The notes under the pieces: model-generated
Told to the model about the DNA's origin: nothing
The model's input: only the letters and a program-made list of their open reading frames with translations
Databases searched by the model: none
Position numbers and translations under genes: made by a program
Shown: positions 6,949 through 21,847 of the stretch, piece after piece
Numbering within the stretch: the stretch's first letter is position 1
Layout: the number at the start of each line of letters is the position of its first letter
Source: an uncultured Acidobacteriota bacterium
Lineage (GTDB): Bacteria > Acidobacteriota > Thermoanaerobaculia > Multivoradales > UBA5704
Reading direction: 5' to 3'
Assembly: GCA_963770895.1 (NCBI GenBank)
Contig: CAVYRF010000001.1
Location: 736,001-800,000, forward strand
Length of the DNA stretch: 64,000 nucleotides

Positions 6949-7707
6949 ATGAAGACCGTGTCCCGCCTGCTGTCCGTCGCCGCCTACGGCCTGGTGCGAC
7001 CGTGGATGCGGCGCCGGGTGGGCCGGACGGTGCTCGAATCGATCGATGGCGTGCCGCTGGTGGTGTTGCCCCAGGTGCTCAACCCGCGCGTCTTCCGCAC
7101 CGGCGCCTGGCTGGCGCAGGCGGTGCCGCCGGCTGCCGCGCCGGCGGCCACCCGCCGCGCTCTCGACATGGGCACCGGCTCGGGCATCGGCGCCATCTTC
7201 GCCGCCCGCCGCGGCTATCGCGTGACGGCGCTCGACATCAATCCCCACGCCGTCCGGTGCGCTCGCGTGAACGCCCTGCTCAACGGCCTGGACCAGCAGA
7301 TCGACGTGCGGCAGAGCGACCTGTTCGACGCCGTCGCCGGCGAACGCTTCGACCTGGTGCTGTTCAATCCGCCATTTTTCCCCGGCACGCCGCGCGATCC
7401 GCTGGACGCGGCCTGGCGCAGCCACGACGTCATCGAGCGCTTCACCGCCGGCCTGCCCGCGGCGCTGGCGCCGGGAGGGTCGGCCCTGCTGCTGCTGTCC
7501 AGCGCCGGCGGCTCCGACAGCAAGCTCCTGGCCCACGTCCCCGCCCAGCTGCGCGTCGCGCCGGTCTTCCGCCGCGGCTTTGCCGGCGAAACGATCACGC
7601 TCTTTGCCGCCACCTGGGTCCCCGCCGCCAGCGCCAGCGCGGCCCAGGCCGGCGCCGCCCGGCCGCTGGCGGCGCCCGCGCTGTCCTCCGTGGAGGTGAT
7701 GCGATGA
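6949..7707 (+). CDS. HemK/PrmC-like class I SAM methyltransferase
   Basis: LDMGTGSG motif I and FNPPF motif IV (amine N-methyltransferase type); stop overlaps the next ATG (ATGA). Confidence 0.88.
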   Translation: MKTVSRLLSVAAYGLVRPWMRRRVGRTVLESIDGVPLVVLPQVLNPRVFRTGAWLAQAVPPAAAPAATRRALDMGTGSGIGAIFAARRGYRVTALDINPHAVRCARVNALLNGLDQQIDVRQSDLFDAVAGERFDLVLFNPPFFPGTPRDPLDAAWRSHDVIERFTAGLPAALAPGGSALLLLSSAGGSDSKLLAHVPAQLRVAPVFRRGFAGETITLFAATWVPAASASAAQAGAARPLAAPALSSVEVMR

Positions 7708-9296
7708 GCGCCAGCGTTGCCTCGGCAGGCGTGTCGGGCGCGGCGGCGGGCCGCCAGCGGGTGCTGCTGGTCAATCCGCGCATGTGCTCGCGCCGCTCGA
7801 TGCGCCTGCCGCTGTCGCTGCTGTCGCTGGGTTCGGTCCTGGAAGGGCGCTACGACTACCAGCTGATCGACGGCAATGTCGATCCCGACGCCATCGGCAC
7901 CGCGCTCGCCGCGCTGGCGCAAGGCGACCATGCAATGGTGGGGGTGAGCGTCATGCCGGGGCCGCAGGTGGGGCCGGCGATCGCGCTGTCCACCGCGGTG
8001 CGCGCGCACTTCCCGCAGGTGCCGATCGCCTGGGGCGGGTACTTCCCGACCCTCTACCCGGATTCGGCGATCAACGCTTCGTACGTCGACTACGTGGTGC
8101 GCGGCCAGGGCGAAGAAACCCTGCTGGAGCTGCTGGCGCGGCTGCCCGACGCCGGGCCGCCGGCGCCGCCATCCGACTCGGCTGCCGACGCCGGCGCCCT
8201 GGCCGGCCTGGCGGGCCTGACCTTCAAGCACGACGCCGAAGTGCGGCACAACGCCGACCGCCACTTCAAGCCGCCGGACGACCTGCCGCCGCTGCCCTAC
8301 CAGCGCCTGGCCGACGTCACGCCCTACCTGCGCCCGACGTTCATGGGGGCGCGCACCGGCGTGCACCAGGCGGCCCTGGGCTGCCGCTATCGCTGCAGCT
8401 TCTGCGGCGTCGTCACGATGTTCAACGGCGTCACCCGCCTGCAGGGAGCGTCGCGCCTGGCGCAGGCGGTGACGACGCTGCGCGACAAGTACGGCGCCGA
8501 CTCGATGCAGTACTACGACAACAATTTCTTCGACCGCGAAGAGAGCAGCGTGCCGCTGCTCGAAGAGCTCGCCCGCCTGCAATCGCCCTGGTGGTGCTAT
8601 GCGCGCGCCGACACCATGGCGGGCTTTTCGACCCGCACCTGGGAGCTCATCCGCCAGAGCCGCATGCGCATGGCCTACATCGGCGCCGAAGCGGGGAGCG
8701 ACGCGGCGCTGCGCCAGATGAAAAAGGGGTCGCGCGTCGAAGACACGTTGGAGGTCGCGCGCCTGTGCCGCGCCTACGGCGTGGTGCCCGAGCTGTCGTT
8801 CGTGCTCGGCGGCCCCGACGATCCCGAAGGCGAGGTCGAGCACACCCTGAGCTTCATCAAGCGCATCAAGCAGATCCACCCCACCTGCGAAGTCGTGCTG
8901 TACTTCTACAGCCCGACGCCGCGGCGGGAAGCCGCGTCAGAGGCGACGCGGGCCAGCGGCCTGCGCCTGCCGGTGATGGACAACTACGGCCCGGACGGCC
9001 CGCCGCTGCCGACGACGCCGCTCGAATGGACCGAGCGCAAGTGGATCGACTACGTGTGCCACCAGGACGCGCCCTGGCTGTCGCCGCGCCTGCGCCGCCG
9101 CGTGCGCGACTTCGCGACCGTGCTCGGCTGCCGTTTCCCGACCGTGCAGGACGCCAAGACCCCGGACTGGGGCAAGGCGATCCTGCGCAACCTGTCCCGC
9201 TGGCGCTACAGCAGCGGCCTCTACGGCAGCCCCTGGGAGCTGGAGCTGGCCCGGCGCCTGGTGCCCTTGCGCCAGCCGCAGCGCGAAAGCCTGTGA
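7704..9296 (+). CDS. Cobalamin-dependent radical SAM enzyme 1
   Basis: N-terminal B12-binding domain (LLVNP..PLSLL..WGGYFPT..RGQGE), CRYRCSFC, YDNNF, GAEAGS. Confidence 0.92.
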   Translation: MSASVASAGVSGAAAGRQRVLLVNPRMCSRRSMRLPLSLLSLGSVLEGRYDYQLIDGNVDPDAIGTALAALAQGDHAMVGVSVMPGPQVGPAIALSTAVRAHFPQVPIAWGGYFPTLYPDSAINASYVDYVVRGQGEETLLELLARLPDAGPPAPPSDSAADAGALAGLAGLTFKHDAEVRHNADRHFKPPDDLPPLPYQRLADVTPYLRPTFMGARTGVHQAALGCRYRCSFCGVVTMFNGVTRLQGASRLAQAVTTLRDKYGADSMQYYDNNFFDREESSVPLLEELARLQSPWWCYARADTMAGFSTRTWELIRQSRMRMAYIGAEAGSDAALRQMKKGSRVEDTLEVARLCRAYGVVPELSFVLGGPDDPEGEVEHTLSFIKRIKQIHPTCEVVLYFYSPTPRREAASEATRASGLRLPVMDNYGPDGPPLPTTPLEWTERKWIDYVCHQDAPWLSPRLRRRVRDFATVLGCRFPTVQDAKTPDWGKAILRNLSRWRYSSGLYGSPWELELARRLVPLRQPQRESL

Positions 9297-20265: not shown

Positions 20266-20266
20266 A

Positions 20267-21847
20267 TCAGTTCCAGCTCTTGCTCAGGTCGGGCATCGCC
20301 GGCGTCGTGTAATCTTTTCGAATCGCCGTCGGCCGTTCGCTGCGGCTGCACGCTTCAAGCCGCCCCAGCTCCAGCCAGGCGCTGCACAGCTGATCCAGCT
20401 CCTGCCGGATCTCCGCATCGGACGCGCCGTCTACAGCCGCAGGCGCGCCGGCGGCGGCGTTTGCAGGCAGGGCGGGCGGGGCAGGGGCAGCGCCCCGGGA
20501 CCTGTCGCGCAGGCGCTGGCGGACCAGCAGATCGCGGTGCAGCAGGCGATGCAGGTGGCGATAGAAAGGCGTCTGATAGGTGCCCTGAAACATCATCGCC
20601 AGGTCGTTGCTGTCCTGCCAATGATCCTGCCCGTTGAGCTGGGCCTTGACCATCTCATGGAAGCGCGTGCCGGGCAGCGGGTAGCTGACGCTGATGCCGA
20701 TCTCGTCGGGCAGCGTGTCGCGCACCAGCTGCACCGTCTGCTCGATGTCTTCAAAGGTTTCACCGGCGTAGCCGAACTGCAGGAAATAGCAGGCGCGGAT
20801 GCCGGCGTCGCGCAGACGCTCGCGCACCACCGGGATCTGGCGCGCGTCGGTGCCCTTGTCCATGGCGTCCAGGATCTTCTGGCTGCCGCTTTCGACCCCC
20901 AGCCAGACCTCGTGGCAGCCGGCCTTGGCCAGGCCGGCCACGGCTTTTTCCGTCATGAGGTCGATGCGCGACTGGATCTTGAACGGGATCGAGCCGTCGA
21001 GCGCCGTCACCCGGTCGGCAAATTCGGCGACCCAGCGCGGCTGCAGGCCGAAGATGTCGTCGGCAAACCAGATCAGGTCGGGCTTCAGGCTGCGCTTCAG
21101 CAGCGCCATCTCTTCGGCCACGCTGGCCGGCGAGCGCATGGCGTAGCGCTGCCCCCAGATCGGTTTTGCGCACCAGTTGCAGTGGAAGGGGCAGCCGCGG
21201 GTGCTCACCATGTTGAGGCTGAAGTAGCCGTGGGCGCCGCGCCAGGCATTGCGGTAGCGTTCCACGTCGAGCAGGTCCCAGGCCGGCAGCGGAAAGACGT
21301 CGGGGTGGCGCTCGACGGCGCGCGAGCAGGTGCGCTGCACCCCGTCCGGCGCCGCCGGATCGGGGATCGCGAGGCCGGCCACTTCGTTCACGCACCGGCC
21401 GTTGGCGCGGCCGGCAAGGATGTCGACCAGCTCGCCCAGGGTGTGATCGGCTTCGCCGGCCAGCACGTATTGCACGCCCTCGCGGAAGTACACCTCGGGA
21501 TGATCGGACGCGTCGGAGCCGGCGGCGATCACCGTGGCGCCGGCGGCGCGCGCGTGCCGGCTCATGTTGCAGCCGGCGCGGCGGCTGTGCGCCAGACACA
21601 TCTTATTGAGAAAGTTGAATTGATCTTCGTAAAGGGCGACGATAGCCGGTTGCGTTTCGGCCAGGAGCCGTTCGAACTCCTCTTCGCCATCGGCCAGCAT
21701 GGCGTCGAACAGCGCCACCGAATAGCCGCGCCGCCGCAGTTCGCTGGCCGCGTACAGCGTGCCGAGCGGCGCGTAGGGCGACATCTTTTCGATCTGCTTC
21801 GGATCATTCTTCAGAAAGAACGAATGGGCGAGGAGGATGTCGGTCAT
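20267..21847 (-). CDS. Cobalamin-dependent radical SAM enzyme 4
   Basis: PYAPLGTLY, RGCPFHCNWC, ADDIF, GVESGS; paralogue of enzyme 3, including a similar N-terminus. Confidence 0.93.
   Translation of the reverse strand: MTDILLAHSFFLKNDPKQIEKMSPYAPLGTLYAASELRRRGYSVALFDAMLADGEEEFERLLAETQPAIVALYEDQFNFLNKMCLAHSRRAGCNMSRHARAAGATVIAAGSDASDHPEVYFREGVQYVLAGEADHTLGELVDILAGRANGRCVNEVAGLAIPDPAAPDGVQRTCSRAVERHPDVFPLPAWDLLDVERYRNAWRGAHGYFSLNMVSTRGCPFHCNWCAKPIWGQRYAMRSPASVAEEMALLKRSLKPDLIWFADDIFGLQPRWVAEFADRVTALDGSIPFKIQSRIDLMTEKAVAGLAKAGCHEVWLGVESGSQKILDAMDKGTDARQIPVVRERLRDAGIRACYFLQFGYAGETFEDIEQTVQLVRDTLPDEIGISVSYPLPGTRFHEMVKAQLNGQDHWQDSNDLAMMFQGTYQTPFYRHLHRLLHRDLLVRQRLRDRSRGAAPAPPALPANAAAGAPAAVDGASDAEIRQELDQLCSAWLELGRLEACSRSERPTAIRKDYTTPAMPDLSKSWN

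Follow-up and report, generated by a model that had tools for sequence, protein, structure and literature searches.

Clusters of phosphorylated and phosphoglycosylated lasso peptides are a described precedent for part of the locus analysed here: an HPr-kinase homologue phosphorylates a Ser of the peptide, and a nucleotidyltransferase adds a hexose onto the phosphate, as in pseudomycoidin (PMC8498205, accessible text). The locus occupies positions 6949-21847 of a 64,000-nt stretch of an uncultured Acidobacteriota bacterium (contig CAVYRF010000001.1; the whole stretch is hereafter the window) and holds 12 genes in two convergent operons, 7 on the plus strand and 5 on the minus strand. An earlier note on this DNA had proposed that all eleven enzymes of the locus converge on one 101-aa protein, and had taken the kinase, nucleotidyltransferase and sulfotransferase as a lasso tailoring set; such a trio is indeed described for phosphorylated and phosphoglycosylated lasso peptides, and the locus resembles the paeninodin and pseudomycoidin clusters in having a putative HPr-kinase homologue, a nucleotidyltransferase and a putative sulfotransferase beside a ribosomal product (PMC8498205, as far as its accessible part goes). 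Unlike lasso clusters, it contains no lasso cyclase (the Asn-synthetase-like C protein), no pair of B1 (PqqD) and B2 (a transglutaminase-like protease) and no ABC exporter in a Pfam search of the 12 genes and their flanks; its partner is a 101-aa protein that is predicted to fold, carries its Ser/Gly loop internally and does not end in Ser, and a GT4-type enzyme is added. The lasso nucleotidyltransferase, we assume, belongs to PF14907. Comparison with related loci revealed that two units which can be separated make up the locus: a widespread seven-gene cassette of four B12-binding radical S-adenosylmethionine (SAM) enzymes (B12_1 to B12_4), a SPASM radical SAM enzyme and two methyltransferases (MT1 and MT2), and a rare module in which the small protein is accompanied by an HprK-like kinase, an NTP_transf_5 nucleotidyltransferase, a glycosyltransferase (GT) and a protein of predicted sulfotransferase fold.

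Like the proteusin clusters of polytheonamide (Poy) and aeronamide (Aer), the locus combines B12-dependent radical SAMs with another radical SAM and an N-methyltransferase, and MT1 is related to AerE (PMC9060474, accessible sections). Unlike proteusin clusters, it has no adjacent NHLP or Nif11 precursor and no protease, its radical SAMs stay under the TIGR03975 cut-off, and the cassette mostly occurs without any candidate peptide. Tailoring sets of the aminoglycoside type comprise GenN, GenK/GenD1, AprD4, BtrN, PIG-L deacetylases and TobZ. The nearest solved relatives of MT1 and B12_2 were GenN and AprD4, respectively, and related loci add GT4 enzymes, PIG-L and NodB deacetylases and a carbamoyltransferase; unlike aminoglycoside pathways, no 2-deoxy-scyllo-inosose synthase or aminotransferase set was seen, and identities are low. 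Instead of an antibiotic, the cassette product may be a glycoconjugate of the cell surface. In archaea, the SPASM/twitch radical SAM Gms, which is clustered with the B12-dependent radical SAMs Grs and Gmm, modifies tetraethers, and homologues are reported in Acidobacteria and Planctomycetes (accessible part of PMC11214058). The likeness to these Gms/GrsA/B/Gmm clusters, compared by description only from the same partial source (PMC11214058), lies in the pairing of a SPASM/twitch radical SAM with B12-dependent radical SAMs; the two SAM methyltransferases and the frequent GT partners set the locus apart from them. No published description of the cassette or the module was found in the literature covered, which leaves out subscription journals.

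A search with B12_2, taking one genome per species, returned 186 relatives, of which the 80 best-matching loci were analysed. These loci were compared by tblastn of all window proteins and then by clustering of genes called on codon usage, a caller that overlooks the small gene in the window; clustering of all six-frame open reading frames (ORFs) was swamped by antisense frames and was replaced by these calls. The closest relatives of the window locus were metagenome-assembled genomes of Thermoanaerobaculia (Acidobacteriota), and the 80 loci spanned Thermoanaerobaculia, other Acidobacteriota, Gemmatimonadota, Steroidobacteraceae, other Gammaproteobacteria, Chthonomonadia (Armatimonadota), Planctomycetota, Ardenticatenaceae (Chloroflexota) and a few Alphaproteobacteria. 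With the window itself excluded, B12_2 was present in 80/80 loci (by construction), SPASM in 60/80, B12_1 in 50/80, MT2 in 41/80, MT1 in 39/80 and B12_3/4 in 33/80; these counts are lower bounds, since many loci were ended by contig edges. The seven cassette genes stay together across phyla and their order differs. B12_2 was the most conserved of them (58-79% identity across the 80 loci and several phyla), B12_3 showed 49-80% identity in related loci, and the cassette B12-radical SAMs as a whole ranged between 47 and 80% in soil bacteria, mostly uncultured, of at least five phyla.

The module, on the other hand, was rare beside the cassette. Among the 80 loci, the HprK-like, NTP_transf_5, GT and sulfotransferase-like genes adjoined it only in L013, the closest relative, and L029. 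A composition scan for Gly/Ser-rich ORFs was positive in the same two loci and negative in the other 78, and the hidden Markov model of the small protein matched only L013. Since the cassette occurs without such an ORF in 78/80 loci, the 101-aa protein is probably not the target of all eleven enzymes. The earlier note had itself named what would speak against its proposal, namely homologous clusters lacking any small ORF and enzymes matching a characterised pathway; the former is largely what we observed, whereas no characterised pathway matching the cassette or the module was found. In L013, a GAF-GAF-GGDEF diguanylate cyclase gene lies at 11531-13156 (-), between B12_2 and the sulfotransferase-like gene.

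Analysis of the surroundings revealed carbohydrate genes around the cassette in four phyla. A GT-like gene lay within 6 kb of cassette genes in 29/80 loci, and in 26 of the 53 loci holding four or more cassette genes. The partners sharing a same-strand run with the cassette were mainly GT4 (12 loci), an MsbA/PglK-like ABC exporter (12) and GT2 (7), and more rarely an HprK-like gene (5), an AT3-SGNH gene (3) and GT1 (3). In Gammaproteobacteria, one co-directional run comprised SPASM, MT1, B12_2, B12_1, GT4, GT2, the MsbA/PglK-like ABC exporter, an HprK-like gene, GT1 and an AT3-SGNH acyltransferase, and extra methyltransferases, NodB and PIG-L deacetylases, an amidohydrolase, an LpxL-like acyltransferase and Acyl_transf_3 were found near the gammaproteobacterial cassettes. 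Gemmatimonadota and Armatimonadota loci similarly add GT4s, NodB and PIG-L deacetylases, a carbamoyltransferase, GNAT, GDSL, LPG_synthase_TM, GT87 and an HprK-like gene. The alternative already mentioned in the earlier note, that the enzymes decorate a glycan, thus suits the cassette better than the one-protein proposal does.

The arrangement in Thermoanaerobaculia was of another kind. There the cassette usually stands behind genes for a multicopper oxidase resembling MnxG (245-362 bits; cut-off 3100) and for a beta-propeller protein, which share a same-strand run with it in 11 and 14 loci, respectively; B12_1 and MT1 are convergent onto the cassette, and no GT lies within reach. YncE-like beta-propeller or MnxG-like oxidase genes upstream of the cassette were seen in L016, L017, L021, L025, L028-L030, L035, L037 and L042-L045, and SCO1/SenC and cytochrome-c/periplasmic-binding genes also occur in related Thermoanaerobaculia loci, so that some tie to the oxidation of copper or manganese is conceivable.

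None of the 12 locus proteins reached a curated NCBIfam cut-off. The best NCBIfam matches of the cassette were HpnJ, BchE and a ladderane-lipid radical SAM, all far under their cut-offs, and against TIGR03975, the model of C-methyltransferases of ribosomally made, post-translationally modified peptides (RiPPs), the four B12-binding enzymes scored 54.9-72.4 bits (cut-off 281.85). The NCBIfam matches of MT1 likewise all fell under their cut-offs, and MT2 matched CpaM best, with 61 bits against a cut-off of 180. Comparison with solved structures gave AprD4 for B12_2 (1.2e-13), BlsE (1.2e-9) and SkfB (8.5e-8) for the SPASM enzyme, and GenN (9e-14), AerE (7RC2-6, ~3e-11) and HemK (1.7e-10) for MT1. 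The closest solved homologues of three cassette enzymes, AprD4, BlsE and GenN, are sugar-acting, and these relatives weakly favour a sugar substrate for the cassette. The MT1 translation contains the NPPF motif, which marks methylation on an amine or amide nitrogen.

The search for RiPP recognition elements (RREs) that the earlier note had recommended, run with Pfam rather than a dedicated RRE finder, gave no match to PqqD/RRE (PF05402) at E<=0.01 on all 12 proteins; for three of them, the HprK-like, the small and the sulfotransferase-like protein, the negative extends to E<=0.1. The radical SAMs open straight into B12 or radical SAM catalytic domains, and in the SPASM enzyme, in which no N-terminal RRE was recognised, the radical SAM domain begins at about residue 45. 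The NHLP leader model TIGR03793 had no match in the genome (94.95% complete), but control genomes were silent too, hence this result is uninformative; the Nif11 leader model TIGR03798 had a single match, about 1 Mb from the window. This Nif11-type peptide (L102; contig 1, 1793310-1793516 (-)) is 80 aa long, and its Gly-Gly site precedes WSSTDPPPSGS. Clustering of the intergenic ORFs of 28-140 aa from the cassette loci revealed no family common to more than 6 loci and none that was precursor-like; the shared clusters resemble toxin-antitoxin genes or frames antisense to genes. A tree of 46 B12_1 sequences built by maximum likelihood (six of 51 cluster members, shorter than 440 aa, were dropped and L101 was added) grouped the four module-linked copies, from the window, L013, L029 and L101, with the module-less Thermoanaerobaculia copies of L036, L039 and L040. 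Branch lengths were ordinary, with no long branches among the module-linked copies; together with this grouping, they give no indication that the function of B12_1 is altered beside the small protein.

The synteny of the module was tight. Twelve loci with the small protein were available, namely the window, L013, 9 metagenome loci and L029, which has a repeat variant, and the gene for the sulfotransferase-fold protein lay directly downstream of the small gene in all of them. The GT lay upstream in 10/12 (7/9 of the metagenome loci); the exceptions were L094, with only 267 nt of upstream sequence, and L095, in which 554 nt upstream held no GT. Where the contig extends, the NTP_transf_5 and HprK-like genes followed farther upstream, as in L101, whose order is methyltransferase, B12_1, HprK-like, NTP_transf_5, GT, small gene, sulfotransferase-like gene and TonB-dependent receptor. 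The HprK call rests on a sub-threshold match to Pfam Hpr_kinase_C (E 5e-4, 20 bits against a cut-off of 33.3) together with a Walker A motif, and the HprK-related kinase models TIGR04352 and TIGR04355 scored 29.2 and 30.8 bits (cut-off 200). The solved structure nearest to the GT was that of chlorovirus B736L (6.9e-18). TonB-dependent receptor genes stand directly after the sulfotransferase-like gene in L100 (3296-5236) and L101 (11201-13114), an adjacency which hints that the module product might be imported from outside.

The 101-aa protein, which the earlier note took for a real gene product, is borne out as such by 37 relatives (82-101 aa, 45-98% identity) and by its synteny with the sulfotransferase-fold gene in all 12 loci. 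Its family had 16 representatives among 1.84 billion proteins, 9 of them at E<=1e-10, and no member in 400 other genomes sampled from the phylum. Within the module, only the small gene has a strong Shine-Dalgarno sequence together with a long upstream gap, 45-135 nt across loci and 135 nt in the window. The protein contains no acidic residues, Gly, Val, Ser and Thr make up 73% of it, and it matched neither Pfam nor NCBIfam. The AlphaFold2 model is all-beta with 7 strands (predicted local distance difference test, pLDDT, 63 overall and 71-83 in the strand blocks), residues 23-47 forming a predicted disordered Ser/Gly loop. Foldseek of this model against the PDB gave nothing at E<=0.001, the best rows being CnaB/pilin domains at E ~0.5, and an Atlas look-up of the homologue P0036 returned only unnamed clusters with scores of at most 0.83. 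The family is conserved end to end and predicted to fold: its flanks are conserved, N7 and Q8 are invariant, and the C-termini read ..TVQP, ..SVKP or ..SAKK. The loop, by comparison, varies between members and is built of PSGSG(V/I/W)x, GSGTN or GSGVGSSK units in tandem, and divergent members enlarge it by tandem PSGSG(V/I/W)x or GSGTN units with the flanks retained. The ORF of L029 is a 97-aa variant made of GSGTN repeats after a similar N-terminus.

For the sulfotransferase-like protein, sequence-family searches (Pfam, NCBIfam) gave no match, and a profile search of its alignment against PDB sequences gave nothing meaningful. Its AlphaFold2 model (pLDDT 67), aligned with VIA-align over 48,161 chains, had sulfotransferases as its eight best matches (Z 9.2-10.6, 191-221 residues, rmsd 4.0-4.5), with 4gox first (Z 10.6), then TPST1, tick TPST, TPST2 and Stf9 (Z 9.8-10.0); P-loop kinases ranked after them at Z <=9.2 (shikimate kinase, 9.2). 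The top Foldseek rows similarly include TPST, Teg12/14, StaL and CurM-ST (E 0.05-0.5), and a sulfotransferase fold is thus predicted for the protein by the model comparisons. The usual 5'-phosphosulfate loop is PRSG(S/T)T, and Arg and Ser contact the 3'-phosphate. In this family the loop is invariantly LPRSLS(T/S) and the Arg of RPxxDVA is invariant, and the Ser at +8 is not conserved. The family was found in 3/401 genomes of the class sample and 2/401 of the phylum sample, own genome included. In the two other carriers, genomes G755 and G314, the sulfotransferase-like gene and a GT come after a small ORF, with no kinase, nucleotidyltransferase or radical SAM; by hhalign, the small ORFs of L103 and L104 did not match the small-protein alignment significantly (23% and 3% probability). 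In L103 (genome G755, 227-4327), the trio stands beside a lanthipeptide-dehydratase-like gene, and two Cys/Thr-rich candidate precursor peptides with Gly-Gly motifs occur there.

From the observed gene content, separability and synteny, we infer with a probability of about 40%, hence tentatively, that the cassette tailors a sugar-derived substrate and that the small protein presents its Ser/Gly loop as acceptor to a four-enzyme module of its own. The B12-binding and SPASM radical SAMs would C-methylate or rearrange a substrate such as an amino-sugar glycoside, a glycolipid or a surface glycan, and MT1 would N-methylate an amino group, plausibly one exposed by the accompanying deacetylases. In the module, the beta-sandwich protein would offer its disordered loop with the variable (P)SGSG-type array as acceptor, the HprK-like kinase would phosphorylate loop serines, and NTP_transf_5 would transfer onto the phosphate, as reported for pseudomycoidin (PMC8498205, accessible text); the GT4-type enzyme would O-glycosylate the small protein and the sulfotransferase-fold protein would possibly sulfate it. 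In this lineage the module is inserted behind B12_1 and sits inside the cassette, so that the cassette may tailor the sugars of the small protein or those of the neighbouring glycan operon. Several observations weigh against this reading. About 25 Thermoanaerobaculia loci with 5-8 cassette genes have no GT in their 10-kb flanks, and B12_1 stands directly before the module in 4/4 loci with a visible upstream side. The PDB is a biased yardstick and the E-values of the sugar-acting relatives are modest (1e-9 to 1e-14), while the second-best solved relative of MT1, AerE, is a peptide Asn N-methyltransferase. With PRSLST in place of PRSG(S/T)T, sulfotransferase activity is uncertain. The lasso precedent uses a C-terminal Ser, which the small protein lacks, and the protein's non-acidic, Gly/Val/Ser/Thr-rich make-up presumably resembles that of proteusin cores.

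The proposal of the earlier note, with all eleven enzymes acting on the 101-aa protein, appears quite unlikely. The product would then be ribosomal, heavily modified and proteusin-like: the small protein would undergo C-methylation by the B12-binding radical SAMs, amide N-methylation by MT1 and SPASM chemistry, then phosphorylation, nucleotidylation or glycosylation, and sulfation. The part of the proposal concerning the module agrees with the synteny, and the tight operon coupling of MT1, B12_1, the HprK-like gene, NTP_transf_5 and the GT just upstream of the small gene, the position of B12_1 before the module wherever the upstream side is visible, the match of MT1 to AerE, the subgroup formed by module-bearing loci in the B12_1 tree, and an uncharged, Gly/Val/Ser/Thr-rich small protein with invariant N7 and Q8 all fit it. 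The part that assigns the cassette to the same protein was not supported, as the Gly/Ser-rich ORF is missing from 78/80 cassette loci and no RRE/PqqD match was obtained with Pfam. The NHLP search of the genome found no leader (with silent controls), the sole Nif11 peptide is ~1 Mb off, and the four B12-binding enzymes reach 55-72 bits of the 282 at which TIGR03975 is cut; conservation throughout and a predicted fold are unlike a leader-core precursor, and in L103 and L104 a small ORF, the sulfotransferase-fold gene and a GT occur with no radical SAM. We also regard as improbable a proteoglycan-like molecule, in which a small cytoplasmic Ig-like core would carry a Ser-Gly array that four enzymes dedicated to it phosphorylate, phosphoglycosylate, O-glycosylate and sulfate, and whose sugars the cassette then C- and N-methylates, while in other soil phyla the cassette would tailor glycolipids or glycans that are exported; if true, one widespread, undescribed sugar-tailoring cassette would be common to protein-linked and lipid-linked glycoconjugates.

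That the whole locus decorates the glycan or glycolipid of the adjacent operon at 22-29.5 kb, with the small protein as an accessory (an Ig-like adaptor, a chaperone or a specificity subunit for the GT and sulfotransferase), is rather unlikely in our view. The carbohydrate context in four phyla, the co-directional glycan operon common to the window and L013, the GGDEF cyclase within the L013 locus, HprK-like genes alongside GTs in loci without the small protein, and the predicted beta-sandwich with its weak likeness to CnaB/pilin domains are consistent with such a role; the variable Ser-Gly tandem array is, however, what would be expected of a multi-site acceptor, the small gene is equipped with a strong ribosome-binding site of its own, conservation of the glycan operon with the cassette stops at L013, and a weak promoter-like site separates the two operons. 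It is doubtful, too, that the cassette methylates, cyclises or bridges membrane lipids, as with tetraethers or hopanoids, or that it makes a cofactor, either of which would leave its proximity to the module incidental. Gms with Grs and Gmm does act on archaeal tetraethers and has homologues in Acidobacteria and Planctomycetes (PMC11214058, in its accessible part), but the likeness to Gms/Grs/Gmm/Tes is drawn from description, not from sequence. The bare cassettes of ~25 Thermoanaerobaculia loci without nearby scaffold genes, the LpxL-like, MsbA-like and AsmA genes adjoining gammaproteobacterial cassettes, and the far sub-threshold HpnJ, BchE and ladderane-lipid matches point towards lipids, whereas the NPPF motif of MT1 and its relatives GenN, AerE and HemK indicate the nitrogen of an amine or amide, GTs, deacetylases and carbamoyltransferases are recurrent partners, and ether-lipid or hopanoid genes were seen in none of the loci.

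The cassette product, of whatever kind, is probably a common, unrecognised feature of soil bacterial envelopes or metabolites, and it would be unusual chemistry for a sugar-derived scaffold to receive multiple B12-dependent C-methylations. The module would be a simple case, with one small protein, four enzymes and predictable mass shifts, in which the ability of the lasso-peptide kinase/nucleotidyltransferase pair to act on a folded protein can be tested. Treating the locus as two units averts a misdirected hunt for 11 modifications on a single protein.

Because six-frame ORF lists are useless at the G+C content of the window (~72%), genes were called from a third-position GC frame plot, inspection of start codons and Shine-Dalgarno sequences, and Pfam/NCBIfam matches (Table 1). 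All components listed in the earlier note were recovered: four B12-binding radical SAMs, the SPASM radical SAM, two methyltransferases, kinase, nucleotidyltransferase, GT, sulfotransferase-like protein and 101-aa protein. The two convergent operons are as tightly coupled as it had described, with ATGA/GTGA 4-base overlaps at seven junctions, including ATGA between MT1 and B12_1, and a 1-nt gap at one further junction. The absence of a scaffold-building enzyme, a transporter and a protease also holds inside the locus, where no polyketide synthase, nonribosomal peptide synthetase (NRPS), cyclase, protease or transporter was identified; a Wzx flippase is encoded in the operon just upstream. Note that the small protein, the sulfotransferase-like protein and the nucleotidyltransferase had no NCBIfam match whatever, and no cluster protein showed a convincing membrane segment. 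PADLOC, with its anti-phage defence models, gave only generic methyltransferase or radical SAM domain matches (mad2, pVip, PDC-M51A), none of them system-specific.

Table 1 Genes of the locus and the adjacent glycan operon, in window coordinates.
Feature	Position	Strand	Evidence
MT1, class-I N-methyltransferase, MTS/HemK type	6949-7707	+	Pfam MTS 7.7e-16; motif LFNPPFFPG
B12_1, B12-binding radical SAM 1	7704-9296	+	Pfam B12-binding, Radical_SAM
HprK-like P-loop kinase	9293-11017	+	Sub-threshold Pfam Hpr_kinase_C; Walker A GRSGQGKT
NTP_transf_5 nucleotidyltransferase	11014-12201	+	Pfam PF14907, 2.4e-30, 106 bits (cut-off 31.2)
GT1/GT4-type glycosyltransferase	12198-13628	+	Pfam Glyco_trans_1_4, Glycos_transf_1
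Small 101-aa protein	13764-14069	+	GTG start behind GGAGAGGAGG Shine-Dalgarno sequence
Sulfotransferase-fold protein	14102-15136 (alternative start 14084)	+	Predicted fold only; Ala-rich insert
B12_2, B12-binding radical SAM 2	15376-16800	-	Pfam
Radical SAM/SPASM enzyme	16797-17879	-	Pfam Radical_SAM, SPASM
MT2, class-I SAM methyltransferase, low-complexity insert	17876-18871	-	Pfam Methyltransf_25
B12_3, B12-binding radical SAM 3	18868-20265	-	Pfam
B12_4, B12-binding radical SAM 4	20267-21847	-	Pfam
Co-directional glycan operon	22134-29543	-	Pfam, gene calls, synteny with L013
Wzx flippase (Polysacc_synt_3)	27017-28546	-	In operon just upstream

The co-directional glycan operon encodes a 420-aa protein of no recognised family, a hexapeptide acyltransferase, a NodB-type deacetylase, a GT4, the Wzx-type flippase and a GT2. 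It thus has the flippase and glycosyltransferases of a Wzx/Wzy-type system, and no initiating transferase or polymerase was identified in it. The operon is kept with the cassette only in L013. The promoter-like site is a weak one at 21983-21955 (-), in the 286-nt gap upstream of B12_4.

Tandem repeats are unusually dense at the locus, in coding as well as intergenic sequence, with periods of 18, 33, 48 and 81 nt. Tandem Repeats Finder detected an 81-nt repeat of 4.2 copies in the HprK-like gene, corresponding to an Ala/Thr/Ser insert at ~9621-10192, and the protein has 574 aa in the window vs ~324 aa in relatives. An 18-nt repeat of 9.3 copies occupies the 5' end of the GT gene (12191-12357), another 18-nt repeat lies in MT2 (18364-18452), and the convergent intergenic region contains a 48-nt repeat of 3.8 copies (15160-15336; Tandem Repeats Finder); a further tandem repeat was found at 22012-22082, and the sulfotransferase-like protein carries an Ala-rich insert. 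The repeats yield in-frame low-complexity inserts in three genes which are not found in relatives and are lineage-specific.

Among the other genes of the window, an NRPS end (A-T-TE: AMP-binding, PP-binding, thioesterase) lies at 1-2928 (+), with unrelated genes between it and the locus. An Nramp-type metal transporter (3883-5292, -) and a DtxR/MntR-family repressor with FeoA (6086-6751, -) are divergent from MT1; a functional tie of the locus to these genes was considered and dropped, as the adjacency is not conserved in L013 or L029. On the far side, a 475-aa protein with a Peptidase_S74 domain (the intramolecular endosialidase chaperone), which typifies tail-fibre-like proteins, is encoded at 32789-34216 (+) and adjoins the gene for the epoxyqueuosine reductase QueG.

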